Assembly: GCA_963799775.1 (NCBI GenBank)
Contig: CAWCYD010000003.1
Coordinates: forward strand, 1,696,001 to 1,760,000
Origin: an uncultured archaeon
GTDB taxonomy: Archaea; Thermoproteota; Nitrososphaeria; Nitrososphaerales; Gagatemarchaeaceae
Reading direction: 5' to 3'
Length of the DNA stretch: 64,000 nt
The translations under genes were made by a program, and so were the position numbers. The notes below the pieces were generated by a model, which worked only from the letters and a program-made list of their open reading frames with translations, searched no databases and was not told where the DNA came from. This document shows positions 28,185 through 45,127 of this stretch, in pieces. How positions within the stretch are numbered: the first letter of the stretch is position 1; each line of letters starts with the position of its first letter.

Positions 28185-28212
28185 GATGGGATTCCGCGCA
28201 TGGAGATAGAGA

Positions 28213-28240
28213 GGGGCCGCGGGGGGGACTCGAACCCCGG
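28213..28240 (-). repeat. tRNA 3'-end-like fragment (T-arm + acceptor), copy 1
   Basis: Reverse complement CCGGGGTTCGAGTCCCCCCCGCGGCCCC; no D or anticodon arm. Confidence 0.7.
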
Positions 28241-28273
28241 CGATTTGACGTGGTACAGCGATGAATCCGGAAG

Positions 28274-28960
28274 CTAGTAGGTGAGATCTACGTATGAGCT
28301 CGAATAACTGCCACCCTCACCGCATCCATCGTTGACCCAAATTGTTCCGCTCCACGAGGGTGTTATACTTCCGGATGAATCACTTTGGGATATGGAGTCA
28401 AAATAAGTGGATCCGCTAGCGGGGTAATCTCCACATTCGTTATAGACGTTAAAATCCGCGGTCTCCAAGACGACATAACCCCAGTAAGGAAGGTTACTCG
28501 TATTGAAGCCGGCAGGACCGAAGGAGGCAGAGTAGTCGTAATCGCTATCATAGATGTTCGTGTCGTACGCGCATGTTATTGAATTGCAGCTAGTCTGAGT
28601 TATACTTCCATATACGGTGTCATACTCAGGAATACCGCATTGCGCCGTACCATAGTAGGCTTCACCCAAGTTCGAGTCTACAAACCAACTGTTGATGGCG
28701 TACGTTTGAATTCCCTGTCCATTGAAACAACCCGCAGTATTATCGTATGACGGCCCCCACTCCAACACGGGTTGCATCAGTCTTCCGTATCCCGTGCTGT
28801 TATCCATGATTCCAATCCATAAGAATATGGTCTGCCCGTCGTAGTCGCTTGGATAGGCGGGAGCCTCCCAGTTCGCTGAAAAGCCGGTCATATAATTAGA
28901 ACTGTAGTCCTCAGTTTGTTCAATCCATGTGGAGCCTGAAGGCCCCGTCCCCGGATGAAC
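28274..28960 (-). pseudogene. G1/A4 glutamic-peptidase-like secreted domain, 5'-truncated
   Basis: WIE..., FSANWEAP, FLWIGI, LMQPVLEWG, VVLET; frame is open upstream of the ATG but has no signal peptide. Confidence 0.55.
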
Positions 28961-29072
28961 GTATCACGAATTCATAGTTTCAAAATATTCTTTTTGCAAG
29001 AATGTACTGATTCGATTTCGTGTAACGATAATGGCTCAAGCAACGCATGCTTTTCTGCACTTGAGCAGATTT

Positions 29073-29540
29073 TCACGGAGGACACGTAGGAAGTGTAGAG
29101 ACTGTAGTTCGTGGGCTAACACAATAGGCCGTTGAGTTGTCGAACCAGACAGTGTACTGGATATTTGCCTGGCCTTGCTCCCCAACGTGCAAAGTCGCTG
29201 CATAATAGTATCTGTCTTGATACGCTAGAAGCGTGGCGTTTGATCGTGTGTTATTTGTATACAGTTCACAAGGAATTTTGAGTACTGTGCATGGCCAAGC
29301 CCCAGCAGTTCCAACCACGGTCGCATTCTGTTCTACTACTGTCCATGACGAGGAATTGCTCGTCCCAGTCGAAAGTTTAACGGTGTTACTCGTGTCTAGA
29401 CCGGACGATGCCACCTTGACATTACTCGAAAATCCAGACTCAATTACGAATCCGAATCCAAGCGTCGCGACCAAAGCAATCGTTGCCCCAATAATGATTT
29501 GCCTCTTATATTCGGACAACCCAATCCAACTGCTAATCAA
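29073..29540 (-). CDS. Membrane-anchored secreted protein with Cys-containing C-terminal module
   Basis: N-terminal TM, YTVWFDNST.YCVSP..TCP. Confidence 0.65.
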   Translation of the reverse strand: MISSWIGLSEYKRQIIIGATIALVATLGFGFVIESGFSSNVKVASSGLDTSNTVKLSTGTSNSSSWTVVEQNATVVGTAGAWPCTVLKIPCELYTNNTRSNATLLAYQDRYYYAATLHVGEQGQANIQYTVWFDNSTAYCVSPRTTVSTLPTCPP

Positions 29541-29607
29541 TTTCGAGCGATATAGCTCTATACATTAGCAATAAATTCCCTATAAAATTTTCGCGATCAT
29601 TTTCTTA

Positions 29608-29631
29608 GGGCCGGGGGGACTCGAACCCCGG
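29608..29631 (-). repeat. tRNA 3'-end-like fragment, copy 2
   Basis: Reverse complement CCGGGGTTCGAGTCCCCCCGGCCC; direct repeat of copy 1. Confidence 0.7.
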
Positions 29632-29685
29632 TCAAACCTAGTTACAATCTAAATATCGGCGCGAAAGACCCGTCGAAACCTTAGT

Positions 29686-29777
29686 GGCCCTGATAGTGCA
29701 GCCTGGTTAGCATAGAAGGCTGTGGCGGAGTAATCCGCAGATACCTTCCGACCCGCGTTCAAATCGCGGTCAGGGCC
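29686..29777 (+). tRNA. tRNA-His(GTG) with encoded G-1 and a 17-nt intron at 37/38 (29726-29742)
   Basis: Cloverleaf GCCCTGA/TCAGGGC, anticodon stem GAAGG/CCTTC, T-loop TTCAAAT, discriminator C. Confidence 0.93.
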
Positions 29778-30067
29778 CTCATCTCAACAATCAGCCCTTC
29801 GGCTTCACCTCGACCATTAGCGATTTCATCTCTCCGTTTTCGAGGGTCGAAAGGACGGCGCACCCAAATTCGGCCGCCCGTATACCAAAAATCCATCTTC
29901 AGTTTCCCAGTCATCTGCTCACCCAGTCGAACTATGGAGTCATTTCCCCCTTCGCCGGCTCGTTTTGGGTGTGCGTACTCCTGGGCGTTTCTAGACTCAG
30001 TACACGAACGAACGTGCGACCGGAATCTAGGTAAAATTGCCGCGCGGCAACATAAGAAAGTGACTTT

Positions 30068-31327
30068 CTATCTGACAATCTCAGAGCCGATTACGAGCAG
30101 CCACCCTGCGACGACCAGGTAGACGTCCCCATTCATAGTGTCAATCGAAGCTTCGAGATAGTTATGGTTAACGCCGGCCACAACTAAGATGGCTGTCGCC
30201 TCATAGGAATCTCCGATTATTATCGATGCAACGGAGCTATCATTGAAGCCAAACAAGTATAGGTTTCCCGAAACGGGATCGAATAATGGCAGTTGTCCAC
30301 CATGGCCCAGAGTTATTGTGGTTACGATAGAGTTCGTCACTCCCGATATGATGTAAATCGAGCCGTTTTTCAAATTAAGGCTAGATGCGTAAAGATCACC
30401 GTTAGTATAGTCTAGAACGGGCGTCGTGGGACCACGGCCGACACCCACTGTCGCGACGACGCTATTGTTCTTTCCATCAATGACCGAAATGTTGTCGCCC
30501 AGCAGCGGACCCTGGTCAGGGACGTAGATGTCCCCGTTAATGGGGTCAAAAAGCGGCGTCCATGGGAATGGGCCCACTGGCACAGTGGCTATCACGGTAC
30601 CTGCAAGTCCTGAAATCACGGAGACGGTATTACTAAACGGGTTGGAAACGTAGATGTCTCCGTTAATCGAGTCAAAAGCCGGAGTGACTGGATTATTGCC
30701 TACAGTTATCTCCGAGACTAACGAGTTTGTCGCCCCTGATATGACGGCGACAACATTCGATCCGTAAATGGGGACGTAGATGTCCCCGTTGGCAGGATCA
30801 AAGACTGGTGTGCGTGGACTCTCACCAACATAGATTGTGCCGATGACAGTGTTCGTATTGCCTGAAATGACTGAGACATTATCCATGCCTTGGTTCGAGA
30901 CATACAGGTCGCCGTTCATCGTGTCTAGTGCCGGCGTCGTAGCATTGCTACCCACAATCACGGTTGCGGCTAACGAGTTTGTGGCTCCCGAGATAACAAG
31001 GACTCTGCTGGATTGGTAATCAGATACATATATGTCTCCATTGAGAGGGTCAAAAAACGGTGGCTGCGGGTCAAGGCCCGCAGATATGTTAGCAATGACC
31101 GCCAAAGTCATTTGGGCGGTAGAATTCCCCGCAGATGATGTGTCCGATGCGAGTGTTTCTGTCAAAGTCGTCGTATTGTTATGATTCACGGTTACTGTGG
31201 CCCTGAACGAAGGCGCTGCCAGAAGAACAGATAGCGCGAGGCCGGCCGCTATGACACATGCCACCAATGCGTATGTAAAGCGCGAACTAGCAGAATGCGA
31301 TTGGCTTTGCAATTCGTCTTCAACCAA
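30068..31327 (-). CDS. YncE/YVTN-type beta-propeller repeat surface protein
   Basis: Repeats of P.FDP.NGDIYV...VSVISG.TN.V..TI.VG; N-terminal TM. Confidence 0.85.
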   Translation of the reverse strand: MVEDELQSQSHSASSRFTYALVACVIAAGLALSVLLAAPSFRATVTVNHNNTTTLTETLASDTSSAGNSTAQMTLAVIANISAGLDPQPPFFDPLNGDIYVSDYQSSRVLVISGATNSLAATVIVGSNATTPALDTMNGDLYVSNQGMDNVSVISGNTNTVIGTIYVGESPRTPVFDPANGDIYVPIYGSNVVAVISGATNSLVSEITVGNNPVTPAFDSINGDIYVSNPFSNTVSVISGLAGTVIATVPVGPFPWTPLFDPINGDIYVPDQGPLLGDNISVIDGKNNSVVATVGVGRGPTTPVLDYTNGDLYASSLNLKNGSIYIISGVTNSIVTTITLGHGGQLPLFDPVSGNLYLFGFNDSSVASIIIGDSYEATAILVVAGVNHNYLEASIDTMNGDVYLVVAGWLLVIGSEIVR

Positions 31328-31435
31328 TTAATCAGACAACGTGTCCCAAAAGCCATTAGTTTAAAACAGAAGCAAGCACCGTCAATGTGATGCTCTCCAT
31401 TTTATGATCTCGATGTCCATTGAATCGACTCCTTT

Positions 31436-33157
31436 CTAAGCGGTCTCCGTGAAATCCCAAATCCCAGAACCGAAACTGCATGAGCCAGTGCCAAGATTGC
31501 TTGACTCGCCGGTCGTGCTATACGTGGGACAAGTGTCTGGAATCAGAACGCCACTCGAGTCGTACATATTTCCATATATGGTCATACTGGTGCCCGAGTT
31601 CCAGACAGCTTCTGAGCCGCCCCCTGCTCCGAAGACATTGTACTCTTCTGATGTCCACTGATTAACTAGATTGTACCCAGAGGGGAACAGATTATCTGGT
31701 ATCGTGTTCTCCCAGCACTGCGAGCTGTCGCAAACATTCGCGAGATCAACATTACCGAGGCTCGAAACCCCCGCAGCGGCGGCGATGTAGAGAGAGCTGA
31801 AGTCTGACGGCGAGTTCGCTGGGGGAATCACTGTAGCCGGTGTGACATTCAACTTATATTCATAGGTGCCACAATTTCCGTTTCCAACTGAGGTCCAATC
31901 AGTTCCAAGGTTGCCGCAATTTCCTGAGCCGTAGTAATTCCCGTAGTTGATGACTTCGTCCTCTACATCGACGTATGCCGTACTTTCACCATAAATGCTC
32001 GTATAAACAAACTGCTCCCAACCGTAGCATGCGTTCATACCGGTTCCGCATATCCCCGAGATCAACCACCTATTGGAATTCAGTTGGATTGAATATGCGC
32101 AGTCTCCATATGTGTCGTCCTCTTCGCCAGTGCCTCCTGTGCAATCGTTGTTGATTCCACTTACTGTATCACCGCCTCCTGTTAGGAAGCTGTCCTCGGC
32201 GTGTGATATCAACGTTCCACTGCTTTCCTCTCCGGAGTAATCGCATGTTCCGGTGCTTGTCTCAGTGGCACAGCCACCGACCGGAGGACCAGGATTGTGA
32301 GGCCCGCCAAAGGGCTTGACACAAGCTTCTGCCTGCCACTTCACACTAGGATATGAAGCCTCGAAGCAACCCACCCCTCCCGCTCCAGTGGCGGCCACTT
32401 GATGCATCCAGATGTAGTTCGAACACTGCGACGCAATGTAGTTGGTATGCGTTGCTACCGAGCCGTCCTGGGTCATGACATCGCCAGTGATGTTCGCGCC
32501 GGTTCCCATCGTGATGCTGCCGACCGAGAGGATACTTCCCGCAAAATTGGTCTGCCTGCTCAGGGTAGCGGCGCCTCCGACCTGCCAGAAGACGTTGCAG
32601 CCGCTGCCACCGGTCATAATCACGGAGGAGCCACCCGAGGTGGTAAGCGAGCCCGCTACTTGGAAGATGAATAGGGCATTGACGTTGCCTTCAGGGTTGA
32701 GAGTGAGCGTCCCGCTCAGCGACGCCGCCGAAGAGTAGCAATAGACGCCCGGTGTGAGCGTGAGCCCTCCCAGGTTCTGGCCTGTCAGGTTTCCGGTGCA
32801 TGAATCGCTCGCAAGAGCGCTGTAGGCACTGGTGAGGTTGTCTTTGGCTTGAAGCGCGACTGAATCATCCTTGTATATGGTCCCCGTGACGACCCCAGGT
32901 GGAAATCCGACGACAACGGCGCTGGGATCGACTCCAAGGTTCCCGCTGATGTTGGAAGGGCCTGTATTGCTTACTGCCCCTGCAGAGAGAACCCCGAAGC
33001 CCGCTGCCATTCCTAGGCTAGGCGGCGACGATGGGCTCGTTGCTGCGGCGGGCGAAACATAACGCGTGAAAGAAGACAAAACAAGAATGACAACGATAAT
33101 GAGAGGTGAAATGTTCGTGCGCCGCCGACTCTCACCTTCCGAGGGTAACAGCTTCAA
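31436..33157 (-). CDS. Secreted DUF3494 ice-binding-like domain fused to a Cys-rich C-terminal domain
   Basis: FGVLSAGAVSNTG, LGGLTLTPGVY, FIFQV, NVFWQVG; then YSIQLNSN, GWEQFVY, EYNVFG, TGESSNL. Confidence 0.85.
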   Translation of the reverse strand: MKLLPSEGESRRRTNISPLIIVVILVLSSFTRYVSPAAATSPSSPPSLGMAAGFGVLSAGAVSNTGPSNISGNLGVDPSAVVVGFPPGVVTGTIYKDDSVALQAKDNLTSAYSALASDSCTGNLTGQNLGGLTLTPGVYCYSSAASLSGTLTLNPEGNVNALFIFQVAGSLTTSGGSSVIMTGGSGCNVFWQVGGAATLSRQTNFAGSILSVGSITMGTGANITGDVMTQDGSVATHTNYIASQCSNYIWMHQVAATGAGGVGCFEASYPSVKWQAEACVKPFGGPHNPGPPVGGCATETSTGTCDYSGEESSGTLISHAEDSFLTGGGDTVSGINNDCTGGTGEEDDTYGDCAYSIQLNSNRWLISGICGTGMNACYGWEQFVYTSIYGESTAYVDVEDEVINYGNYYGSGNCGNLGTDWTSVGNGNCGTYEYKLNVTPATVIPPANSPSDFSSLYIAAAAGVSSLGNVDLANVCDSSQCWENTIPDNLFPSGYNLVNQWTSEEYNVFGAGGGSEAVWNSGTSMTIYGNMYDSSGVLIPDTCPTYSTTGESSNLGTGSCSFGSGIWDFTETA

Positions 33158-33334
33158 CGCATATTAGACTTGGAACAAAATTGGGAAACCTAAATATAAA
33201 CATTGTACTATTCGCAACTTGTCGTCAATCCTTCTGGGTTTACGGGATTCATCCTTTTCACAGCAAGAACCGGGAAATTAGCGGATGCCTGGACAGGCCT
33301 AACTCGGGGCTCGTTGTTGCCTCCGTCAGACTCG

Positions 33335-34579
33335 TCAGGATTGCGGTCTAATCTGCGCCACCAACGATTTGATTTCGCTTCCATAGAGCACTGACAGCAC
33401 CGCGTATCCTACCTCCGCCTTGCGGTTGTACCCGAAGTCGACCCTCAGTTTCCTCGTCATCTGCTTCAGATGCCTTTGGATCTGGGAGTTGAGCCAAGAA
33501 TACCCATAATGCACCAGCAGTCGTGACTGGGCAATCGCCTTCCCGTCCCTGGTGAACAGGTCTTTCCCGCCTTTCGCAGGTTCCATTATCACGAAGTCGT
33601 CATGCCCAAATTTTCTTTGGAGAATCGTATACGCTATCTCTGAGCCAAGCCTTCCATGCTCGTAGTTGTTGCCATGCCTCAACATCGACTGCTCGAGAGG
33701 CCTGAGCGGCCCGATCCCCTCCACCAAGGGCAACCTATGCACACCATCGAGAAGGTATTTCTTTGGGCCTTCAGTGATCTCCCCTGAAGCATAGAGCGAG
33801 GACGGCTCCCTCTGGTAGATGACAGTGGTCGATGTGCCCTTGGTGTAGTTGTACACCAAGCGCAGCCTGAATCCATCGAACGAAAGATAGGCGACCCGGA
33901 AGAAGCACCGGGTTGCTACCTGCACCCCAAGCCACGCCCTCTTGTCTCCATCGTGGTAGAGCCGCATCAACCTGTCCATCGAGAACGCGTCCTTGACCCG
34001 GAATCCCGCGTAGATCGCGTCCGGCTGATATTCTAGGAGACCAAGCAGTTGTCCGTCCATAACGAACGGTGAGCCTTTGACCTCCGGCTCTTCCGCGATT
34101 GTCAAGGATACCTTATCCCCACTCCATTTCATCTCTATCTTCGCAAGGTTCGAGACCCAAGGTTTGGACATGTCGTTCGCGTATGTGATCGACGGGAAAC
34201 CGTCAAGAAAATCGGACAGAGTGTGTCTTCTCAAATCAATCGTGAAGACATCCCCCGGCTTGCCGATCCTCTTCGGCGCGGTCGGCACCCAGTTCTTGCC
34301 CCCGACGTAGCGGTGGAAGGCTATCGAGTCGGCCTCCTTGTAACTCACTTTCAGGAGCATGGGCTGGCCGACCTTGAACCCTGGCACCCTCGCCTCCAGG
34401 TGCGAAGCAGGGATGAACAACCGGCATGGCTTCTTCGTGCTGAGCAACAGCTGGTTCTCTGGGCTCAACTTCACCATGAGCTCGTTCCCTTCTCTATCGA
34501 GGCGCCGTTGGGAAATTATCTTGGAGAGAGATGTCGTCCCCCTCCTGAATTGGTCGACGGGTTGATGCATCTCTTTCAC
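33335..34579 (-). CDS. Hypothetical protein: AbrB-like N-terminal repeats + C-terminal restriction-endonuclease-fold domain
   Basis: HGRLGSEIA...GGKDL...AQSR; paralog of 42650-44053. Confidence 0.6.
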   Translation of the reverse strand: MKEMHQPVDQFRRGTTSLSKIISQRRLDREGNELMVKLSPENQLLLSTKKPCRLFIPASHLEARVPGFKVGQPMLLKVSYKEADSIAFHRYVGGKNWVPTAPKRIGKPGDVFTIDLRRHTLSDFLDGFPSITYANDMSKPWVSNLAKIEMKWSGDKVSLTIAEEPEVKGSPFVMDGQLLGLLEYQPDAIYAGFRVKDAFSMDRLMRLYHDGDKRAWLGVQVATRCFFRVAYLSFDGFRLRLVYNYTKGTSTTVIYQREPSSLYASGEITEGPKKYLLDGVHRLPLVEGIGPLRPLEQSMLRHGNNYEHGRLGSEIAYTILQRKFGHDDFVIMEPAKGGKDLFTRDGKAIAQSRLLVHYGYSWLNSQIQRHLKQMTRKLRVDFGYNRKAEVGYAVLSVLYGSEIKSLVAQIRPQS

Positions 34580-34990
34580 CCGTTGATCGGCTTCTCGCGC
34601 GTTCTCAGCTTGATTCGCAACTCCTCAGGGGACCGAGCGAAGAAGTCCGCCCTGCTGAGGGACCTTCCTCAGCGCAGTCGTCACTGAGTCCTGGTCCTCG
34701 TTGGGCGCCTCGACCAGAGAGCCGCATCTTATCCTCGGAAGCGTCCTCTTGAGGAGGCCGAACCTGTAGTCCATGAAGGCACCTCTCCTCCTCACCTCGG
34801 ACATGGCCTGGCCCTTCTTCTTCTCGCACCTCGTGCATTCCAAGACTATCCCGGCCCCGACGAAGACCAGGAAATCTACGGAGATCCTGTCCCCGTCAGG
34901 AAAACCGAAGACGTAGTGCTCCCGGGACGGAAGTCTCTCCTCCACCAGGACGTCCCTTACCTGCGCCTCCTGAGCCGTCAGGGGCGTCAT
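34576..34990 (-). CDS. Small Vsr/DUF559-like PD-(D/E)XK nuclease (frameshift near 34660; corrected stop overlaps the next GTG)
   Basis: T.QE..V...L...ISVDFLV....VLECT. Confidence 0.6.
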
Positions 34991-35013
34991 TGCATGAGTC
35001 CTTCTAAGCCACT

Positions 35014-35073
35014 CGATTGACGTTTGCCGCTACACCGTGGATATAGGTGCTGGGCGTATTTAAACACCCATAG
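35014..35073 (-). repeat. Conserved 60-nt palindromic element, copy A
   Basis: 53/60 identity by hand alignment to 42589-42647 in inverted orientation. Confidence 0.9.
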
Positions 35074-35213
35074 AACAAGGGTTTATTCTAGCTCGGATTG
35101 TCCAAAGGAGTCGAATTCTAGACATGCGGGGAACCGGTGATTAGAGCGTGGCGCTTATTTGGCCACCTCACGTATTGGGAGTGAGGTAGCCGGGCTCGAC
35201 AAAAGGGCTCATC

Positions 35214-37742
35214 ATGACGGCGCAGGGGTCGAAAGAAGACCTCTTGGCCAGGCTCGTTCACCCTGTCTTACCCGGACTGCAGCTCAATCGCATACTCTGC
35301 ATCTCGGATGACGAAGGTCTCAACTCTGAAATCAAGCAACAACTGAATGATTTCGGGTACAATCCCCGATTTGTTTCCTATTCTGGCCTGGGGACATTCG
35401 ATTCGAGGCTGGTACGCGGCAAGTCTATCGTGGCGATCTCCCCTACCGTGGCCATCAACGAGTCGCGCGCGAAGGGGATTGTGGATGGGGGCCTGGTAAG
35501 GCTGATGAGCGGCATGAACCTGCAGAGACATCCTAGTGTTTCGCGAGGTGGAGACGCCCTTTGTCATCAGTAGGGTCCAGTCCATCGAGCAACTTGTTCA
35601 TTGGATTTCTAAAGGAATTGATTCCCAGCCCGGGTTCTGGCTTGAAGAACTAGTATTGACACTCGTATACAAGAGGGGTTGCACTATGGTCGGAATACGG
35701 CGGCTCGTTGAAAATTCAGTCTGGGGACAACTCTTCCAAGACGATGGCAACTCAGTCGAGCAGGCCCGTGCAGAGCTCTTGCGGGAAGACCTGGTCACCG
35801 AAAAGAGCGGATACCTAGTTTGCAATGAGTTTGGACATGAGGTCGTTGAAGAAAACACTCCATTCGACACAGTCGATCGACCTGAGTCACGTGAACACCA
35901 TGAACCGGATGAATCGGATGGTCGAGAGGAATGGGGACCCGATGACGACTCCCGAGAGCGCAATTCCTACCTCACCGAAGTTGTGTTCGAAATCATAGAG
36001 AGATTTGGGTGGGTCACGCCAAACGACTTGGCCGCCGCTGCAGAGCGAGCCAGGGTGATGCCAGAGCGGTCGCTGGGAAAATCACGAAGGTTCCTGGAGA
36101 AGCTCGTCGCCAAAGGTGCTCTCGTCAAATCAAATTACAGCACCGGGAGGGGACGACCAAAGTCAGTCTATCGCGGGCGAGACTCGAGGACTGCAGATAT
36201 CTTGGAGAACACCTGCGGTGAGTGTGTCTTCTACTCCCGTGTTACGCGCCGATGCAGGCTGTGGTGGGCGCTATCGAGATTCAATGCGCCGGATGTCTAT
36301 GCAAGAGAGGAAGGATTGTCAACTGTCGCAAAAGACAAACTCCATCACTCCAACAAGAGGGTAGGTTCATTCAGCCACCTCCTGTGAAGAGTTCACGCCA
36401 AAGAAGAAAGACTATCCTCTGTTGAAGGCGCGTGACAAATGTGTTTCCTGCGGCCAAGAGATCGATTCACCCATCGCAAAGACCGTAAAATGCCCTACAT
36501 GCTTGACCGTGTACAAGCCTCTCGCCACGAAAATCCTCGTCCACTACGACTACGAACAGCTCTTCAAGAAACGTTACACAAAGTTAGCAGGCGTGCCGCC
36601 TCCCAGACAAGCACTAGTCCTGACCGAGCAAGAGGTTCATGGTAAGACGGACATCCGTGACACCATCGTTCTCTATCCCAATGAGAATGTTCGTCTTTCT
36701 GAGGAAGGCATGAAGGTGGAGCGAAGAGAGCACGAGTGGACCTTGGAGCCATACTCGAGGATCTACCAGGTAATCGACTATGGCTCGCTAGACGAGAAGG
36801 CTTGCTCGCAGCTTAGAGCCAAGGGGCTTCAGGTCGTGCAGACACATTTGCGGGAACTTCCGCAGCAACGCTTTCCCTTGTATCCATCCCGCGATTTCGT
36901 GGACAAACTACGCCTGCTAGAGCAAAAGTCACCCCTCAGAACAAGGCTCCTCGAGTCGATGATGCTCAGCACGGTCATCGCCACAAGGAGGATAGCGAGT
37001 CGCGGAGGTTCTCCACTCCAGGTCCATCATCAATCGCCAACTCCTCGAGTTCTCACGAATGAGAGCGGATAATGGGATGACACTGAGCAGGGCTCTTGCT
37101 TACGAGGCACGCGTCAACGCCTTCTACTGGAGCGTCTACAAGACGATGCTAAGGGTCTCTGGGCTCCAGTTCGAGAGCAGGGTGAGAGATAGGTTCGTTA
37201 GGGAGATTGTCTCCAGTATCCGGGCCAGAGCGAGGGGATACTCGCCCGCGAACGCAGCGATAAACTATCTGCATCAGAGGAGGCTGCTCTTGTGTCGACT
37301 AGCGAACGCTCGGACAGCTATAGGGTGGGTCGGCTGTGAAGGGGTTCTACATGTTGCGAAGAGAGAACCCAGCATAGGCCTGATGTTGGACCTTAGTGAT
37401 TCATTCCGGCTCGCCGACAGGGAGAGTTTCCTTAACTCCACTATGCGTATGGAGTTGTCAAGGGACGACTTCGTTGCTCGTCCGGGAAAGCACAGGGTCT
37501 GGTTCTTTCATCCGACGCAGGATGCGATTGGGAAGCTTGACTTGTGTGGGTCGAATGCGGATCAGTTTCGCGTTCAGCATGCAGGCAAAGAGATGGCTCT
37601 GACAGGAGCTTATGATCAGTTCGTGGCTTCTTTCGTAGACGCCGTGGACGCGATGGATTTAGAGCGCCTTCACACGTTCGTCTATGGAAATGCTGAGGAT
37701 TTGAAGTGGCTCGAGACGAAAGGCTTGGTTACCGTCTTGTGA
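35214..37742 (+). CDS. cas1: Solo Cas1 fusion of about 840 aa: Hel308-like WH + wHTH + two zinc fingers + Cas1 (frameshifts near 35525, 36370, 37020)
   Basis: Cas1 beta domain (IVLYP..VRL..GMKV..IYQVIDYG...L.AKGLQV) and alpha domain (YEAR...YW, F.SR, PANAAINY, G.LH, LDLSDSFR). Confidence 0.8.
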
Positions 37743-37942
37743 GTCGATCCACAGCCTCCCATGTTAACCAAGATGCGCCACTCTTTTGGAGTGTCTACAC
37801 CACCGCGGCCAAACGTTCCGGCCCGAGCCTCCTAGAGAATATAAAGAAATGGCCTGCGCGGGGTGGCTCTTCTACTCGCTAACTAGGTCGAGGTCAACAG
37901 CTCATCTATGCTTAAATTCGGTCCGAGCATTATCGTTATGCT

Positions 37943-38107
37943 ATGAGAGGCTCGGATCAGGACCATGAGGAAGATTTGGCCTTTGCGAGACAGAAGCTTG
38001 CACAACCAAAGCCTGAACTTGAAGCTTGGCTGAACGAGATAGTTGATGCCTGGATTTCTGGACGCAAGGGGAGAAGGTTGAACAAGAAACGTGTCAGGAA
38101 AGAGTGA
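37943..38107 (+). CDS. Micro-protein A1 (54 aa)
   Basis: Hand translation; homologous to 58639-58779. Confidence 0.65.
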   Translation: MRGSDQDHEEDLAFARQKLAQPKPELEAWLNEIVDAWISGRKGRRLNKKRVRKE

Positions 38108-38276
38108 CCGCTCATCGGTCCTGACCCTCGTTCAGGACTTGGAACCGGTTCTATTCAGGAGGGTTACGAGTGCAATGAGGCTTTCTCCCGAAACCCTCCC
38201 GGACGAGCTCTTGTTGCTAGAAAGCGTTATCGTGCTGAGAAGAGTGCTCGGTGGCACGGAGAGCTCTAGTCAGTAA
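38091..38276 (+). CDS. Micro-protein B1 (61 aa)
   Basis: Overlaps A1; homologous to 58776-58952. Confidence 0.65.
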   Translation: MSGKSDRSSVLTLVQDLEPVLFRRVTSAMRLSPETLPDELLLLESVIVLRRVLGGTESSSQ

Positions 38277-38293
38277 TCGGAGACGTTCCAGGT

Positions 38294-38767
38294 CTATTCG
38301 TTGGAGTAGCAGAAGTACGGGTATCCGCCGTTGACCTTCTGGACGGCCCACTCCACCACCTTGTCGGAGACCTCTCTCCACTTCCTGTCCCAGTCGATGT
38401 CGGCGACGACCAGCTCCTTCTCCTCCTTCCCCTGGACCTCCAGCTTCTCCCAGATTGGCGTGCCGTAGAACGGCTTCACTATCCTCGCGTTCCACTTGTT
38501 GCAAGTCGGTCTGGTGCCGTGCTGGTTGTAGAACTTGCAGGAGAGGCACCATTTCGAGAGCCAGATTATGTTCTTGGAGAACTTGACGGACTTGCCTATC
38601 TCCTCGAGGAGCCGCTCCGACTCCTTCCGGATCATCTGGGCGAGCTCGTCCTGCCCCTGCTTGGTGTTCATGTAGTACTCGGGGTCTTTGGCGAGAGCCT
38701 GCTGCCAAGTGAGCGGCTGCTCCTGTTGCTGCCTCTGCTGCTGCTCCTCGGGGTCGTCTTCGAGCAA
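38294..38767 (-). CDS. Conserved hypothetical protein, putative zinc-binding
   Basis: WCLSCKFY..C...YFCY; host codon usage. Confidence 0.7.
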   Translation of the reverse strand: MLEDDPEEQQQRQQQEQPLTWQQALAKDPEYYMNTKQGQDELAQMIRKESERLLEEIGKSVKFSKNIIWLSKWCLSCKFYNQHGTRPTCNKWNARIVKPFYGTPIWEKLEVQGKEEKELVVADIDWDRKWREVSDKVVEWAVQKVNGGYPYFCYSNE

Positions 38768-38890
38768 TTTTGCTGGGGAAAACCGACTCTCGGAGCTAAT
38801 TAACGATTTCAGATGAATCGTTCATCGGGTCGAATCATCTGGTTGGATTCTTCTCCGAAGACCCGATATATGCCCAACACTGAGCCAACG

Positions 38891-38975
38891 AAGGGAGACG
38901 CGTGGCGTGCTTCGACGGGCAACCTGGACTGGCGCAAGCCAGGATGAAGACGAAACTGCCACGCGTCGACCTTTG
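38891..38975 (+). ncRNA. Candidate structured small RNA
   Basis: 10-bp stem 38897-38906/38958-38967 enclosing two GCAA tetraloop hairpins. Confidence 0.5.
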
Positions 38976-38978
38976 CTT

Positions 38979-40200
38979 CTAGCCCCAGAGCAGGGCGGGC
39001 TCGGCTTGGCTGACCTCTCGCAGCTCTCTTACGACGCGGTCGCGTAGAGCTTCCACGTTCTCCATTTCGAGCACCAATTTGCCCTTGGCCATTATCTGCT
39101 TGAGCATGGGCCTGGAGCCCTTGGGCGCGCCCGACCCGCGGAACGACACTGTGTCCTTGTACCCGTTGGCTCTGTGCACGTCCTTCCTCCCTCCCAGGCC
39201 TCCCCTCTTCGCCCTGAGGTAGGTCTTCCCCTTCTCACGAACCTCCACTATCTTCGCGCTAAAGTCGATGCTCGGCGGGTACGCGACCGCCGTGCCTACT
39301 CCGAATCCGTCCACGATGTCCTTGAGCCGGATCACGTCTTCCTCTGTCAGTCTCCCGGAGACGAATATCTTAACGAACCCGCCGCCTCTGACCTTCAGTT
39401 CCCATTTCACCTCCTCGATGATCTGGCGGAAGTCCCCCCTCCTTGATGAGGGGGTGTCAATCCTCACGCCCCAGAGGTGCTTCCCAAGCGTCTCGAACGC
39501 CTTGATCGCTTCGGCCTTCTCGTCCCAGAACGTGTCGATAAGGGCAGTGCGCTTGACCTCCTTGGGCATGGTCTCGTCGTATAGCCTCCACGCTTTCTCC
39601 TGGTCGCCGATCACCTGCACCAGCGCGTGCGGCATCGTCCCAGAGGGTTCCACGCCTAGCAGCTTCCCTCCCAGCACATTGGAGACACCATCGAAACCCG
39701 CCAAGTAGCAGCCTCTCTCGATGAGAGGTGCGAGCGCGGGATGTACCCGCCTGGTCCCGAAGCTCACGACCTGCCTATCCCCGGCGGCGACCCTGAACCT
39801 GGCCGCTTTGGTGGAGATGCTGCTCGATGATGAGAGAAGGCCCAGCATGGGGTTCTCGTATTCGACGAAGTCTCGATATCTTCCTGAGATCGTTATCACG
39901 GGCTCGTAGAGCGAGCTCCGACCGTCGGCGACGAAGATCGACCCCTCGTCGAATGCCCAGACGTCGAGCGGCAGGCCTTCCAGAAGCTTTGCGACCTCGT
40001 AGACGCCGCTGAGGACGCCCCACCTCCCGTCCTCCGGCAGGTCCCCGCGCGAAGACCTCCATCACGACCTCCGAGTCGATGTGGTGCTTTGCAATGACCT
40101 CCTTCGTGTTGAGGAAGTAGATGTCGGTCGTCTTGGCGTTCTTTATCTCTCGCTCGTTCGCCAGCCAGAAGAGCCGGTCGCGGAGGGTCCTCTTCGCCAT
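38979..40200 (-). CDS. pncB: Nicotinate phosphoribosyltransferase (frameshift near 40040)
   Basis: TTDIYF, SFGTRRVHP, GTMPHAL, ALIDTF, GVRIDTP, GFGVGT. Confidence 0.92.
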
Positions 40201-40264
40201 GACGTGTGTGTCACCGGCCCTTAGAAAAACTATTTCAACTTCGACAGGCTGCGAAGCGAGCCTC

Positions 40265-41043
40265 TTGCTCTCTGCAGAACTCGACCTTTCGCACGCGAAA
40301 CGCGCCATCGTCTCCTTCATCAAACGAAAGGTCCAGGAGAGCGAAGCAGACGGCGCGGTGCTTGGTTTGAGCGGCGGGATTGACTCGGCGGTCACCGCGT
40401 ACCTCACCGTGGAGGCGTTGGGGAGCAGGCGGGTCAATGGCCTGATAATGCCGGACCTCAGGGCCACACCGGATCAAGACGTAAAGGACGCGAAGCTCGT
40501 GGCGAGCGAGCTGTGCGTCGAGACGAAGGAGATTGACATCGCTCCGATACACAAGGCGTACCTGAAGACGGTGGAGCCGAACAGGCTCGCAGAGGGCAAC
40601 CTGAGGGCGCGGATCAGGATGTCGCTCCTCTACTACCATGCGAACCTCTCGAACAGGTTGGTTACAGGCACGGGAGACCGCTCAGAGCTCCTGCTGGGTT
40701 ACTTCACGAAATTTGGCGACGGAGGTGTGGACATCCTCCCCCATCGCGGACCTCTACAAGACAGAGGTCAGGAGGCTGGGCGAGGTCATTGGGATTAACA
40801 GGCGGATAGTCGCAAAGCGCAGCAGCCCGAGGCTGTGGCCCGGGCACATCGCGGAGAACGAGATTGGGATGAGCTACGAGACAATCGACAGGCTCTTCAA
40901 GCTCAGGTTCGAGGAGGGGCTAGAGGTCCCCGGACATCGCAAAGAGCTTGAAGCTGAATCGCGCGAAGGTCGAGATGATTCTCGCAAAGTATGAGGCCTC
41001 AGAGCACAAGAGGCGCATGCCAGAAATCTGCAAGTTGCGCTGA
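40265..41043 (+). CDS. nadE: NH3-dependent NAD+ synthetase (frameshifts near 40740 and 40930)
   Basis: GLSGGIDS, GNLRARIRM, GYFTKFGDG, LYKTEV, SEHKR. Confidence 0.93.
40994..41043 (+). repeat. nadE 3'-end direct repeat, copy 1 (currently in the gene)
   Basis: 44/50 identical to 42219-42268. Confidence 0.9.
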
Positions 41044-41061
41044 CATAGTCCTGAATTTCGT

Positions 41062-41892
41062 CTACATAGTTTTCAGAAACCTTCTGATTCTTTTTACTGT
41101 GTCCCGCAAATTCTTGTCCGTGAGCGCCCTACCCGCTTCGATATCCGCGATGATGATTTTGTCCTCTTGGACAAACCTTCTTGCAGTTCGAACCAACTCG
41201 GGATGCCTGCTCCTCAGGTCGTGATATCTCTCTCCTCCTAGTTCCGGGAGGACGTAGAAGCCAAGCCCCATTATCGAGGGATTCGACCTCAATACCTTGA
41301 TGGGATTCTTCGCGGCCGCGTCGTTCAACGCCTTGAGACTCTTTGGGTCGAGCAAGCCAAGGTATCGACCCACAGAATGCTCTCCGTGATCCGCGTGGGT
41401 TATCTCAATCTTGCCGTGCTTTCTTGTCCTCACCGATGACCCTCCTGGGAAAGGGCGAACGTAGTGGAAAGCAACACCCAATTCTTGCGATATTCGGTTC
41501 TCATCCTCCTCGAGGAAATTGTTTCCGCCGTGGCCGCTCACTACGATGACCATCGATGCCTTGTTCCCCAGGTATCTCTGCTGCGCGAGGATCCCTCCAT
41601 TGATGTCTCCAATCAAGAGATTCACAAGCTCGTATCTTGGTATGCACCCCGGGTTCCAGTCCAAAGCGACCTCTCCAGCACGGTCGCCGGAGTAGGGGAG
41701 ATGGCCAATGTAAGTCAGCCCGAGTCTAATCGCTGCAGTTGTGGCTGTCATTATCGCTGCGTAGTCATCGATGTTGGAAGGGAGCGCCGGGCCGTGGTCC
41801 TCGTTTCCCGCACCGATCGAGAAGATGAGGGCGTGCCTGTTCTTCTCAGGGAATGACTCGCTCGCTCGCTTTCGTGCTGGTACGTCGGGCAT
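41062..41892 (-). CDS. Creatininase-family amidohydrolase (ArfB-like)
   Basis: EDHGPALP..ID, SGHGGN, HADHGEHS. Confidence 0.75.
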   Translation of the reverse strand: MPDVPARKRASESFPEKNRHALIFSIGAGNEDHGPALPSNIDDYAAIMTATTAAIRLGLTYIGHLPYSGDRAGEVALDWNPGCIPRYELVNLLIGDINGGILAQQRYLGNKASMVIVVSGHGGNNFLEEDENRISQELGVAFHYVRPFPGGSSVRTRKHGKIEITHADHGEHSVGRYLGLLDPKSLKALNDAAAKNPIKVLRSNPSIMGLGFYVLPELGGERYHDLRSRHPELVRTARRFVQEDKIIIADIEAGRALTDKNLRDTVKRIRRFLKTM

Positions 41893-41993
41893 TAGAAATA
41901 TCCAGAACCGAGGTTTGACTATAAGACTTGGGCTATCGTCTGGTGGTCAGAGTTATCATCGAGGCCCCTTCTCTTGTCAAAGGTGCGTCAAGG

Positions 41994-42220
41994 ATGCCTG
42001 ATGCCCGAAGCTTTGGGAAATGGTCTCTGATTGCTGTCGCCCTATTGGGTGTTGGAACGGTTCTGATGCTCTTTGGATTCTTCACTCTCCTAGGGAAGAG
42101 GTTTTGTGGATTAGCGTCATTGTTGTTGTGGCGGGCATCTTCGTGGAGGTTCATCGGATTCACTTTGGCATACTTCGCGTACAGAGCTTCGGTCTCAAAA
42201 GAACGAACTCAGCAGACTAG
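41994..42220 (+). CDS. Small membrane protein (frameshifted; end uncertain)
   Basis: Hydrophobic helices in adjacent frames. Confidence 0.4.
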
Positions 42221-42268
42221 GCCTCGGAGCACAAGCGACGCATGCCCGAGATCTGCAAGCTGCGCTGA
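42219..42268 (+). repeat. nadE 3'-end direct repeat, copy 2 (displaced)
   Basis: Encodes the same ASEHKRRMPEICKLR* with six synonymous differences. Confidence 0.9.
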
Positions 42269-42275
42269 AGCGTCG

Positions 42276-42515
42276 TTAGATCCTGTCTCTCCTTTTTTCC
42301 ATCCGCCTTGCTTCTTCAATCAGTTGGCGCGAGTCTGTGCGGGCGAATAATTTCTTGAGTGATCCTTTCTCTGTCATCGGGTCTGTAATTGGCTTGAGAA
42401 GAATGCCTCCCTCGGCGTCTACGAGCAGGACCCTTCTACCAATCTTGTGCTTCTTCAGGAGCCTGGTTGGAATGGTCGCTTGCCCCTTCTTTGTCACTGC
42501 CGCTATGGTTCGCAT
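42276..42515 (-). CDS. AbrB/MazE/SpoVT-family DNA-binding protein (orphan antitoxin-like)
   Basis: VTKKGQATIP..L.KK..I...VL....GGILLKP. Confidence 0.85.
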   Translation of the reverse strand: MRTIAAVTKKGQATIPTRLLKKHKIGRRVLLVDAEGGILLKPITDPMTEKGSLKKLFARTDSRQLIEEARRMEKRRDRI

Positions 42516-42588
42516 CTGTCCTTCGTTGTAACACAAGTTGCAAAGTAATACTTGAACATTGAGTATCACTCGGGCGTGGGTTCGAGTG

Positions 42589-42647
42589 CTATGGGTGTTT
42601 AATACGCCCAGCACCTACATATTTGGTGTAGCGGCAAACGACAATCG
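42589..42647 (+). repeat. Conserved palindromic element, copy B
   Basis: CTATGGGTGTTTAATACGCCCAGCACCTA...GGTGTAGCGGCAAACG.CAATCG. Confidence 0.9.
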
Positions 42648-42649
42648 GC

Positions 42650-44053
42650 TGTCTCAAGCAGGCTGAGATTCACCAACCCATTGAGTCGACACTTCAAGGC
42701 GGAAGAAGTGGGAGGCCTACGTTCGCGATCCGCAAGGACCTCATTGAAGACGCAATCGGAAAAAGACTGGAGAATGGGAGGGAGTATGAGATACGCGTCC
42801 GAATAGATGGAATCGGAGACTTCAGGGTAAGGCATCTGGAAAGAGGGGCAAGGCGGATCTCCATCAGGGTGCCAAAGGAGGTGAGGTCGAGTGACCTCAG
42901 GTTCGGCGAGAAGCACAGGTTAGAGATTCGCTCGGTGGAGCAACGGAGAGAGTTCCGTGTGGAAAACGCCAAGGCCGCGGGACCCACGGTGAAGATTTCC
43001 CGCGCTTCAATCGAGAGTTGGGGGCTATCCTCGAGGGCGAAGGCGCAAAACGAGAGACGGGTTGTCGACCTGCACTTTAGTAATGTCTCTAGGCCAGAGT
43101 TGGCGACAAAGCGCTTCTTCGCGGTATTCGACCCAAGAAAGGAAGAGCTGAACCTCCGCATTAGGAAGCCCGGAGGTAGAGCAGGCGACGTCATCAGACT
43201 CGAAGAGAAGAAAGAATACACAATCGAAGCCTTCCTTCAAGACTTTACGAAGCGCAGAATCGACGCGCTGAGCAATGTCACGTTACGGACGCAGAACGAG
43301 AGACTCGAAATCAAGGTGGATGGCAGGATCTTTCCGCTCAGCAGGCCTCGGCTGGATGCTCGGGGCCTAAAAGCGATCCTCTCCGCCAGGATTGGGCGAG
43401 AAGGTGTACCGATCAGGTTCACGTTCGATGGGGAGAAGGCGAGAATGACGCTGTTCGACGACTGCCCTGTCATTTGTCTAAGAGAGGAGAATGGCCTAGC
43501 AATCAGGTACGACCGAGGAGGAGGCGCATCGCGAACATTCAGGCTTCTCGATAGATTCACCCGAGAGTTGTTGGATAATCGAGTGAGGTTGGTCGCCGTC
43601 CCAGAAACCGAGCACGGGACGTTCAGTTTGATTGCGGATACTTGGCTAGGCGCGCACGTCAGAGACAGATTCGCGCGATGCAGTGGCTATGTTTTCTTGA
43701 GCCAGAAGGGAGACGTCTCGGAAGAGATCTGCCGTTATGCTCTGACCCTTACGTCGTTCTGGAGGGAGATTGCCGATCATCCTTACAATACCTCTACGGC
43801 AGGAGGTAGCAGACGGACCGGCCCTGACAGCCTTCAGCGGCTCTCGAGTTCTGGAGAGCTCTTCTACTTCGAGTTCAAGTGGTGGAGCGGACAACAGGCG
43901 AGCTCAGACGGAGAAGCTCGAAGACAGGCGGAACATTATCTCAAACGATTTCCGACCTATCAGGGAGAAAAGATAGAAGGCGTCTTTATCGGGCTCCTTG
44001 ATTGGAATGTCAAGAGCGACAAGCTCGAATTTCACGTCGAACGAGCGATTTGA
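42650..44053 (+). CDS. AbrB-like repeats + C-terminal restriction-endonuclease-fold nuclease (frame is open about 75 codons upstream of 42869; start uncertain)
   Basis: KGDVSEEI...GPDSL...YFEFKW motif; GDVIRL...YTIEAFLQDF matches GDVFTI...HTLSDFLDGF of the paralog. Confidence 0.65.
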   Translation, partial: CLKQAEIHQPIESTLQGGRSGRPTFAIRKDLIEDAIGKRLENGREYEIRVRIDGIGDFRVRHLERGARRISIRVPKEVRSSDLRFGEKHRLEIRSVEQRREFRVENAKAAGPTVKISRASIESWGLSSRAKAQNERRVVDLHFSNVSRPELATKRFFAVFDPRKEELNLRIRKPGGRAGDVIRLEEKKEYTIEAFLQDFTKRRIDALSNVTLRTQNERLEIKVDGRIFPLSRPRLDARGLKAILSARIGREGVPIRFTFDGEKARMTLFDDCPVICLREENGLAIRYDRGGGASRTFRLLDRFTRELLDNRVRLVAVPETEHGTFSLIADTWLGAHVRDRFARCSGYVFLSQKGDVSEEICRYALTLTSFWREIADHPYNTSTAGGSRRTGPDSLQRLSSSGELFYFEFKWWSGQQASSDGEARRQAEHYLKRFPTYQGEKIEGVFIGLLDWNVKSDKLEFHVERAI

Positions 44054-44069
44054 CTTTGTGAATTGTGAA

Positions 44070-44161
44070 TGGACCGGAAGGGATTTGAACCCTTGACCTA
44101 AGGGAGTTTTTAGCTCTCTCCTGCGTGCGAGGCAGGCATTCTACCACTGAACTACCGGCCC
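44070..44161 (-). tRNA. tRNA-Ala(CGC) with a 20-nt non-canonical intron at about 45/46 (44098-44117)
   Basis: GGGCCGG/CCGGTCC acceptor with G3:U70, CCTGC-CTCGCAC-GCAGG anticodon arm, relaxed BHB motif. Confidence 0.9.
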
Positions 44162-44315
44162 ACCAATTGGAGCCATAAAGCCCCCGTTATTAAGAGCCTA
44201 GTCCTTCAGGTGCTGTCCAGGCTTCGTTTGGTCTAGCGTGAGATGCACTCGGTACCAAACCACAACTCGACAGTGCCACAGTTTGAGTTGAATTATAGGC
44301 GACCATCAGTCTATT

Positions 44316-44340
44316 TGGTGCGGGTGGCGGGAATTGAACG
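44316..44340 (-). other. tRNA-Leu-like 3' fragment (possible att remnant)
   Basis: Reverse complement GTTCAATTCCCGCCACCCGCACCA ending in CCA; rest of the tRNA absent. Confidence 0.55.
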
Positions 44341-44655
44341 CACGAACCCATCCTCGTCGATTTTACTCGACTCTGAGGGAGCGGATATCCCACTCACTCA
44401 GCGATGCCAGCCAGATCTTGGGTCTCAGCGCGGAAGCAGCAGGCTGGGCGACGTCCGCAAGAGCCGAGCCCCGAGCCCCGAGCGCGGTCAAAAAGCCTTT
44501 CGTCGATGTCACTCATGGGTGACTGAACCGAATCTAAAAACTCTATTTTGACTGAACTCACGCTAGCAATCTGTTGGTTATTACACAATTTTGTCATAAC
44601 ATGATTCGTGGAAATGCTATATAGCTCCAATCGCTTCTAGGACTGAGCTTGCTCC

Positions 44656-45003
44656 TTGCCCGATGACGTCGAAGAATCGCCTACGATATTGCTGCGGGTT
44701 GCTCTGCGAAGCCGAGTTCGAAGGCTAGTTCTCTTGACCCTGATGAAACATGAGGACGGGCTTCCAATTTCAGAAATTGCCCGTCAGTCTGGCCTCAGTC
44801 CAACACAAGTTGTAGGCGCTCTGAGAGGCATCAAAGGTAGCTACGATCCTGAGTACTCTCTGCTGAAACTTCACCTAGTCAAAGAAAGAGAATCGAGGAA
44901 TCCCGGAAAGAGGCGGCAGAAAATCTACGAATTCAACTCGAAAAATCTGGTTAGCAGCATTGAGAGAGTAATGGAACGATACAGACAGGCTGGTGAAGGC
45001 TAG
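44656..45003 (+). CDS. Winged-helix regulator, EarA/DUF1495-like
   Basis: RSRVRR.VL..L...ISEIAR......V.GALRG...Y....SL..L.LV. Confidence 0.75.
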   Translation: MPDDVEESPTILLRVALRSRVRRLVLLTLMKHEDGLPISEIARQSGLSPTQVVGALRGIKGSYDPEYSLLKLHLVKERESRNPGKRRQKIYEFNSKNLVSSIERVMERYRQAGEG

Positions 45004-45127
45004 CCGTTGCAATCGAATGATTGTAGGTGTTTCAAAATAGAACGATATTCTATACAACTGAATATACGGCTGTGTCAACAACCGCAAGTCTCGCTTATAG
45101 AGTAACATTCTCTATGAATTTCAATGT

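Follow-up and report, generated by a model that had tools for sequence, protein, structure and literature searches.

We analyzed a window of 64,000 nucleotides from the genome of an uncultured archaeon of the Gagatemarchaeaceae, a family of the Nitrososphaerales (assembly GCA_963799775.1, contig CAWCYD010000003.1, positions 1,696,001 to 1,760,000 of the forward strand). This genome, designated G000, is 81.7% complete. Within the window, we focused on two divergently oriented genes. The plus strand holds a gene for a Cas1 fusion protein (35214 to 37742; stop codon, 37740 to 37742), which consists of a helicase-like N-terminal domain, a winged helix, cysteine-rich zinc modules, and Cas1. The minus strand holds a gene for a nuclease of the PD-(D/E)xK fold (34598 to 35026), recognized as a homologous stretch with one in-frame TGA and with N-terminal residues that lack a listed start; the corresponding open reading frame (ORF) of 121 amino acids (aa) spans 34625 to 34990. 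Next to the nuclease lies a 414-aa ORF (33335 to 34579, minus strand), and past the Cas1 fusion come micro-ORF A (37943 to 38107) and micro-ORF B (38091 to 38276) on the plus strand. An initial annotation of this DNA had joined all of these genes, along with a short intergenic element, into a five-component system. That grouping did not survive comparison with other loci, where only the Cas1 fusion and the nuclease were constant. We propose that these two genes are the core of a lineage-specific, polymerase-less, casposon-like element of the Nitrososphaerales that integrates into tRNA genes. The case is circumstantial, and we give it an even chance of being correct.

The assignment to Cas1 draws on family profiles and on predicted structure. 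In the window, only the last large ORF of the fusion (37059 to 37742) matches a family. It scored 24.9 bits against Pfam Cas_Cas1 (cut-off, 22.3) over the C-terminal domain only, and it matched TIGR00287 with an E value of 1.3e-5. Including the window copy, G000 holds three copies of the gene. The paralog at locus L004 matched Pfam Cas1 (PF01867) with 29.7 bits over profile positions 2 to 263 of 283, covering both Cas1 domains, and the 916-aa paralog at locus L005, searched alone, scored 17.2 bits, under the cut-off. We then turned to an AlphaFold model of the fusion (predicted local distance difference test [pLDDT], 81.4). Residues 570 to 915 of this predicted model aligned with Cas1 and casposase structures at VIA Z scores of 20 to 23, with values of 23.0 for 4n06 (307 residues aligned) and 20.8 for the casposase 6opm; the Foldseek E value for the Cas1 part was 9e-10. 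Four residues, E717, H799, D813, and D816, were invariant in 44 of 44 aligned sequences, and so were eight cysteines. We equated the four residues with E141, H208, D218, and D221 of Escherichia coli Cas1 by motif position alone (article text of PMC4046053).

The remainder of the protein is harder to place. Residues 8 to 270 resemble superfamily 2 (SF2) helicases in VIA comparisons with Hel308 (Z = 15.1; 213 residues aligned), Hjm (Z = 14.2), and Lhr (Z = 13.0), and the N-terminal region matched Hachiman HamAB at Z = 12.7. No Walker A motif was visible by eye in the family consensus, and no sequence-family match was found for the N-terminal region. A 543-position profile of this region found no relative among Protein Data Bank (PDB) sequences. 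Among 1.84 billion representatives, the same profile returned 73 matches, which, judging from the matched lengths and ranges, we take to be family members or fragments. In the ESM Atlas, the N-terminal part yielded only leads below 0.9, to STAND/AAA NTPases.

The fusion family appears to be confined to one lineage. A search of a large protein collection returned 78 clusters at E ≤ 1e-5, and all clusters with a named organism were from Nitrososphaerales or Thaumarchaeota and were labeled "hypothetical" or "Cas1." Among 61 whole genomes, the fusion occurred in 15, G000 included, several of which carry more than one copy. It was present in 14 of the 36 other genomes of the same family and in none of the 24 genomes from 19 other families of the order. 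We found no description of the family in the literature covered, which included passages of PMC4046053, PMC6563490, and PMC12458937.

The partner gene showed no match to Pfam families (Cas4 included), NCBIfam families, or PDB sequences. A model of the family (pLDDT, 90.3) has a restriction-endonuclease-like fold. By VIA, its closest counterparts were the Can2 nuclease domain (Z = 11.3), PspGI (Z = 11.2), and the XisH-like protein 2okf (Z = 10.6); the best Foldseek E value was only 1.4e-3. On the strength of this model, we assign the small divergent gene to the predicted nucleases of the PD-(D/E)xK fold. The gene had been annotated as a Vsr-like nuclease, of which the general fold is borne out and the likeness to the Vsr family is not, as Vsr itself (1cw0) scored Z = 7.7, under many other nucleases.

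The two genes are closely associated. A nuclease homolog stands head-to-head with the Cas1 fusion in the window and in 19 of 22 fetched loci, and the three loci without it (L039, L043, and L045) contain C-terminal fragments of the fusion only. Across the 61 genomes, 14 carried both genes, one carried only the Cas1 fusion, two carried only the nuclease, and 44 carried neither. The single fusion in G020 is a fragment, and the nucleases without a fusion in G002 and G019 are also fragments. Co-occurrence, proposed in the initial annotation as a check on all five components, was therefore found for these two genes, whereas the micro-ORFs were absent beside other Cas1 fusions. A predicted complex of the nuclease with residues 170 to 916 of the fusion gave no answer (score, 0.00).

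The region between the divergent genes contains a conserved core of 63 nucleotides (nt; 35014 to 35076, plus strand) with a CGATTGAC box, a TATA-like box, and CCACCCATAGAAC. We aligned the intergenic regions of six loci of the window's subtype, from four genomes, with an orphan copy of the element from the window as a seventh row. Conserved features were the CGATTGAC box, a TATA-like box oriented toward the Cas1 gene, and CCACCCATAGAACAAGG; the palindrome GCTAGATTCTAGC lies farther along the aligned block. The orphan copy (42586 to 42647, minus strand) is located between an AbrB/MazE-like gene and a gene for a 394-aa protein and faces the former. It shares the first 63 nt only, with 55 of 63 nt identical between its reverse complement and the core (E = 1e-17). 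A third copy in G000 occupies the nuclease/Cas1 intergenic region of L004. The element had been described as a shared palindrome, and its copies are real; the palindrome is imperfect at best, and the sequence is better regarded as a promoter-bearing intergenic block. We read the block as the probable subtype-specific divergent promoter/operator of the nuclease/Cas1 pair. What stays constant and conserved is this pair, Cas1 fusion plus PD-(D/E)xK nuclease, together with the promoter region between them. We also considered a 7.6-kb transposon (35007 to 42654) with the two element copies as its ends, and rejected it on finding that the interior holds the core genes NaPRT and NadE at genomic GC content. 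No second, inverted copy of the element was found in five other loci; because these related loci carry it once only, the two 63-nt copies are not transposon ends.

Both genes lie at one end of a 9.5-kb island (28239 to 37746). We delimited it by an empty-site comparison, a check already named in the initial annotation, with the related genome G018. In G018, which lacks the island and in which no Cas1 fusion was found, orf157 and a YbjQ-like gene are about 290 bp apart around an intact tRNA-His gene. The same two genes are 10.7 kb apart in the window, where the tRNA gene is split. Its 3' piece, comprising the acceptor 3' strand and the T-arm, forms the left border (28211 to 28238, minus strand) and is identical to G018 at 28 of 28 nt. 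Its 5' part, with an upstream TATA-like box, forms the right border (37747 to 37847, minus strand; 91% identity over 103 nt to G018). The stop codon of the Cas1 fusion is 4 nt from the right junction, and the GC content of the island is 0.49 to 0.58 versus about 0.60 in the flanks. The initial annotation had also raised a Cas1-linked mobility module as a possible explanation for integrase-less cassettes. That idea gains support here, since the Cas1 fusion and the nuclease end a 9.5-kb island that interrupts a tRNA gene and is missing from a relative. With no other recombinase seen among the island genes scanned, this part of the proposal outlives the five-component grouping to which it was tied.

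The island carries its own tRNA-His(GUG) gene with a 17-nt intron (29687 to 29777, plus strand; Rfam tRNA score, 46.4 bits against a gathering score of 29). ARAGORN run with introns called this gene His(gtg), and without intron handling it missed both tRNA-His genes. The host gene contains two inserts and was called His(gtg) after in silico removal of a 24-nt D-loop insert. Given that result, we set aside a Ser(gga) call obtained for the unedited, two-intron host gene. The host tRNA-His is whole in G018, G011, and G020, more diverged in G007, and in pieces in G000, G022, and G010. A spare tRNA-His was present in the islands of the latter three genomes, just past the 3' end of a gene of the 414-aa family, and was not found in any of the four genomes with an intact host tRNA. 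The T-stem of the spare gene shows compensatory changes between genomes (window versus G022 copy). In G010, the flanks are collinear with those of the window and the module is inverted in the same tRNA, so that the Cas1 stop lies 21 nt from the tRNA 3' piece, at the opposite end of the island.

The break in the host tRNA-His coincides with the start of the canonical intron, at the end of the anticodon loop, and the tRNA has lost 29 nt. This position raises the alternative of a homing-type element, in which the nucleases, namely the PD-(D/E)xK protein plus the 414-aa or LAGLIDADG-like protein, would cleave the tRNA allele that lacks the island and repair would then copy the island into it, with Cas1 in a secondary or regulatory role. 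Archaeal introns host LAGLIDADG-type endonucleases, and in 8 of the 22 loci the gene downstream of the nuclease encodes a two-repeat protein with two LAGLIDADG-like motifs. Deletion of part of the target, rather than its duplication, would likewise suit homing. However, a profile of the two-repeat protein matched I-HjeMI (E = 0.24) and I-CvuI (E = 0.92) nonsignificantly and at the motif only, and the protein had no Pfam match. Copying between homologous alleles would not give the inverted module of G010, and the invariance of the Cas1 catalytic residues across 44 sequences also speaks against homing. We regard this alternative as improbable.

Support for the casposon-like reading comes from recurrence at a second tRNA. 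In G011, an intact 866-aa copy of the fusion stops 8 nt short of the 5' half of a tRNA-Thr(UGU) gene. G018 and G020 have this tRNA gene whole and without an intron. This island measures 6.57 kb (L040, 3350 to 9916), the break is again in the anticodon loop, and 24 nt of the tRNA are missing. The host-type tRNA-Thr is present in G011 in pieces only. The island carries an intron-bearing tRNA (Rfam score, 42 bits) that is probably Thr(UGU), judging from shared anticodon-loop sequence; ARAGORN was inconsistent, calling it Gln in two runs and Gly in another. This element-type tRNA matches G018 and G020 over stretches of less than 30 nt only. A 14-nt direct repeat in L040 looked at first like a casposon-like target-site duplication (TSD), and we rejected it because it reflects similarity between the 5' half of the host tRNA and the element-borne tRNA. 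G027, which belongs to a different genus, has a 5' tRNA fragment 36 nt past the Cas1 stop, accompanied by the same promoter flank, and a tRNA-Thr(tgt) beyond the nuclease. In total, the Cas1 stop is found 4 to 36 nt from the junction with a tRNA half in four settings, which include both orientations and two different tRNAs.

These positions also bear on the main rival, namely, that the Cas1 fusion and the nuclease are passengers with a role in defense or DNA repair, carried in tRNA hot-spot islands that are moved by another agent or by recombination. Such hot spots do hold different inserts elsewhere, as G007 and G017 have different DNA at the same insertion place. The third gene of the locus varies as it does in defense modules, the SF2-like N-terminal region resembles Hel308 and Hachiman HamAB, and neither terminal inverted repeats (TIRs) nor a TSD was found. 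Yet a mere passenger would not be expected to end so close to the tRNA-half junction in all four settings. Furthermore, no other recombinase family and no polymerase family, PolB included, was detected among the larger island ORFs scanned in G000, G010, and G022; the scanned genes encode, among others, a MoxR ATPase and several secreted proteins, one of them Ice_binding-like. PADLOC, run on nine proteins, returned weak Cas1 matches only and so lent no support to the defense module that the initial annotation had offered as its alternative. We consider the passenger explanation unlikely.

Under the casposon-like reading, the element would insert at or near the tRNA anticodon loop, destroying its target, and would bring its own tRNA of the same anticodon together with a variable cargo, mostly of secreted or surface proteins. 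The Cas1 domain would carry out strand transfer in the manner of casposases, and the winged helix and zinc modules may read the element end or the target. The nuclease could cut the other strand for excision or for target cleavage, by analogy with TnsA, and the 63-nt block would act as the common promoter/operator of the divergent pair. A more specific version holds that these are polymerase-less casposons of a new kind, in which a Cas1 integrase with helicase-like, winged-HTH, and zinc-ribbon parts and a TnsA-like nuclease cut and paste islands into the anticodon-loop or intron position of tRNA genes, so that the target is inactivated and an element-borne tRNA takes its place. We hold this version only tentatively and think it doubtful.

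Several features of the locus recall casposons (families 1 to 4), including a Cas1 homolog that has a complete catalytic set and is found without CRISPR or Cas2, a Cas1 gene at the end of the inserted segment, additional nucleases and helix-turn-helix (HTH) proteins on board, and tRNA genes as targets. Family 2 casposons insert at tRNA-Pro, according to the article text of PMC6563490. Unlike in casposons, no PolB was found among the G000 island genes scanned, and neither TIRs nor a 14- to 15-bp TSD were found. Insertion is inside the tRNA at the anticodon loop, with 24 to 29 nt lost and a spare tRNA supplied; Cas1 is part of an 820- to 930-aa fusion with a helicase-like domain, a winged helix, and zinc modules; and the PD-(D/E)xK partner is constant. 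Cas1-solo group 1 of the Methanomicrobiales is similar in that Cas1 occurs outside CRISPR loci and without PolB. However, that group has an incomplete set of catalytic residues and no sign of transfer (article text of PMC4046053), whereas the E, H, D, and D residues are invariant here and the loci are islands.

The CRISPR adaptation module (Cas1-Cas2, with Cas4) also places a Cas1 fold beside a PD-(D/E)xK nuclease, since Cas4 is a nuclease of this type encoded beside Cas1. In G000, by contrast, a search for Cas2 (PF09827) gave no match, with the same search positive in 6 of 14 control genomes; no CRISPR-like array or spaced repeats were detected by a k-mer scan; and no other Cas1 was found. 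The nuclease, for its part, best matches Can2, PspGI, and XisH-like folds. Tn7 pairs TnsA, which has a restriction-endonuclease fold, with the strand-transfer enzyme TnsB. A comparable pairing of nuclease and strand-transfer enzyme would allow cut-and-paste movement without replication. Here, the strand-transfer enzyme would be Cas1 rather than a DDE transposase, and joint action with the nuclease is suggested by analogy only. Finally, archaeal integrative elements of the SSV and pNOB8 types, which target tRNA genes by means of tyrosine recombinases, likewise form islands there, with sequential insertions and a repeated piece of the tRNA. They differ from the present islands, in which no tyrosine recombinase was found among the genes scanned, the tRNA is not restored, and both orientations occur.

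Cas1 has been known from two contexts, CRISPR adaptation and casposons that encode a polymerase of their own. A large Cas1 fusion that is always accompanied by a restriction-fold nuclease, at the tip of islands that interrupt tRNA genes and supply a replacement tRNA, would be a third and would widen the known roles of Cas1. If our inference holds, the fusion would be a new site-specific integrase and the islands a concrete case for the old notion of mobile elements and interrupted tRNA genes shaping each other. Under the more specific and doubtful version given above, Cas1-based mobility would also be linked to how interrupted and split tRNA genes of archaea arose or spread, and the element would be a vehicle for surface-protein cassettes in soil Nitrososphaerales.

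A number of observations weigh against the casposon-like reading. A blastn-short comparison between the G000 island borders (E ≤ 1) found no TIRs. No TSD was found; instead, 24 to 29 nt of tRNA are missing at both targets, and such loss without duplication is unlike the expected outcome of Cas1-type staggered integration. No excised or circular form was seen, and catalysis by the Cas1 fusion is entirely inferred. The window copy of the fusion has three apparent frame breaks, and its nuclease gene has an apparent in-frame TGA. The genomes compared are kin and not independent samples, so the co-occurrence counts overstate independence. A second subtype comprises the 916-aa copy beside the window together with orthologs from G011, G017, and G022. 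It has a LAGLIDADG-like third gene and no nearby tRNA, and its Cas1 end is not at a junction but is separated from the core genes by cargo. Lastly, the G000 and G022 copies occupy the same syntenic place and have one common junction, so that this insertion looks inherited and not recently moved.

The last observation would also fit a pair that is inherited vertically and serves the chromosome, for example in regulation, segregation, or repair, with its nearness to tRNA halves being coincidental. Two convergent copies of the fusion flanking the same housekeeping block (SRP54, Pus10, Rpb4, and KsgA) in G000, G011, and G022 point in the same direction. Against such inheritance stand the patchy distribution of the fusion (14 of the 36 other Gagatemarchaeaceae genomes, and none of the 24 from elsewhere in the order), differences in presence and absence at identical sites, and a GC content under that of the flanks. 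We therefore judge it very improbable.

The frame breaks of the window copy deserve comment. The initial annotation was correct in placing a Cas1 homolog on the plus strand, but in the window the gene is not one open frame; it consists of four overlapping or adjacent ORFs in different frames (35214 to 35573, 35536 to 36387, 36422 to 37072, and 37059 to 37742). Because these are collinear with single ORFs of 866 to 916 aa in paralogs, we interpret them as one gene with frame changes, which fall near 35510 to 35524, 36370, and 37025. The paralog about 2 kb past the right end of the window in the same genome is a single 916-aa ORF (L005, 7963 to 10713), and the copy in G011 (L040) is an intact 866-aa fusion of the window's subtype. 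The L004 paralog, also in G000, shows 74% identity and is read as 232 plus 628 aa.

We surveyed frame breaks by comparing intact ORFs of relatives with 84 kb of the G000 assembly. Over 40.6 kb of conserved coding DNA, this survey gave 22 candidate breaks. Six were backed by at least two relatives: in NaPRT, at two of the three NadE sites, and at about 55.5, 58.2, and 74.5 kb. In the window, NaPRT, NadE (with three breaks), and other genes are frame-broken at 38979 to 41040 and at about 55500 and 58200, and their orthologs are intact in two to six relatives. These comparisons suggest an assembly prone to indels, and every pseudogene call in G000 has to be weighed accordingly. Because the assembly also breaks housekeeping genes, the breaks in the Cas1 fusion may be artifacts, and the window copy may be decaying or simply misassembled. 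No contig bridging any of the breaks was found in public runs, which yielded short, low-depth contigs from one soil-metagenome study. One contig from run X1 (depth, 10.7) matches 37747 to 37788 and then continues like the intact tRNA region of the G018 type, which suggests that this soil metagenome also holds a related strain.

Several different genes can occupy the third position of the module, and the 414-aa gene is one of them. Downstream of the nuclease, a homolog of it was present in the window and in 2 of the 22 loci, and loci with neither this gene nor the LAGLIDADG-like gene had something else. Its homologs are in L034 (51% identity) and L031, and a large database contained only 11 clusters. 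The initial annotation had read a restriction-endonuclease fold in the 414-aa protein; none of 10 family members had a Pfam match, no PDB sequence matched, hhalign found no profile relation to the small nuclease, and the ESM Atlas gave no usable match. The residues E311, D337, and R350 near the C terminus are invariant (alignment A8), and this E...D...R pattern is all that would speak for a putative nuclease. The C terminus of a second gene of the family persists as a remnant at 29797 to 29944 (minus strand). By tblastn, it is 50 to 52% identical to residues 364 to 413, and at the DNA level it shares 78% identity with the 3' end of the G022 ortholog.

According to the initial annotation, the element and an accompanying restriction-endonuclease gene recurred together at 42.6 kb. 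The element copy is there, and the 394-aa gene next to it (42869 to 44053) is not detectably related to the 414-aa gene (BLASTP E ≥ 7; hhalign probability, 2.4%) and is not a member of the module. As separate observations, a TnpB-like ORF, named by eye, sits at the third-gene position of the module in L004 (4770 to 6245), and an IS200/IS605-type TnpB gene with a Cas12f1-like TNB domain is found in the window at 49747 to 51042.

The micro-ORFs (37943 to 38276, plus strand) lie outside the island, in a 452-nt stretch where G018 has 58 nt. Homologs of them were found beside Cas1 fusions neither in the 22 loci nor in 25 loci of other genomes, and about 40 bp separate the Cas1 stop from the stop of the next gene in G022, which has the closest ortholog locus. 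A recurrence of the pair at 58.6 kb had been reported. Micro-ORF B does resemble the ORF at 58776 to 58952 (E = 5e-6), and micro-ORF A has no direct resemblance to 58639 to 58779. Elsewhere in G000, there is a paralogous pair (C3:1954732-1955041; 47% and 62% identity) and an A-like micro-ORF (C3:1621867-1622004). The micro-ORFs are a separate small gene family and not part of the Cas1 module. Overlapping two-gene pairs were seen only in G000 among the DNA searched, and two of these pairs adjoin island borders.

Other features of the island include its cargo genes (30068 to 33157, minus strand), which encode secreted proteins of 419 aa (with 126-nt repeats) and 573 aa (with an Ice_binding-like domain). 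The 419-aa gene contains six tandem copies of the 126-nt repeat (30384 to 31069). A degenerate second copy of the host tRNA 3' piece is found at 29598 to 29630 (minus strand; blastn, 95% over 20 nt). With the left border, it forms a direct repeat of about 27 nt (28211 to 28240 and 29598 to 29630) that brackets a 1.36-kb segment with two ORFs. This segment appears to be a small insertion in its own right at that site.

The three copies of the Cas1 fusion in G000 (C3, about 1.73, 1.76, and 1.83 Mb) cluster in a stretch of about 100 kb around the cumulative GC-skew maximum of the contig (1.795 Mb). A replication origin at a cumulative GC-skew minimum near 35 kb was considered and discarded, as this minimum is local and the extremes of the contig are at 0.525 and 1.795 Mb. 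In G011, an 8-kb insert at the 5' end of SRP54 (L026 [C1:124001-142000], 5436 to 13511) contains a Cas1 fusion, a nuclease, and a gene for an 877-aa surface protein. An imperfect 34-nt direct repeat of the start of SRP54 (76% identity) flanks this insert, and the flanking genes are adjacent in G000. Finally, the window contains a second low-GC island (41040 to 48400) between NadE and a PIN gene, which are adjacent in G018. This island surrounds a tRNA-Ala(CGC) gene (44069 to 44162), with the 394-aa gene ending 16 nt from it, and it includes an EarA-like HTH gene and two genes (45128 to 47114) with homologs in a different island in G017.

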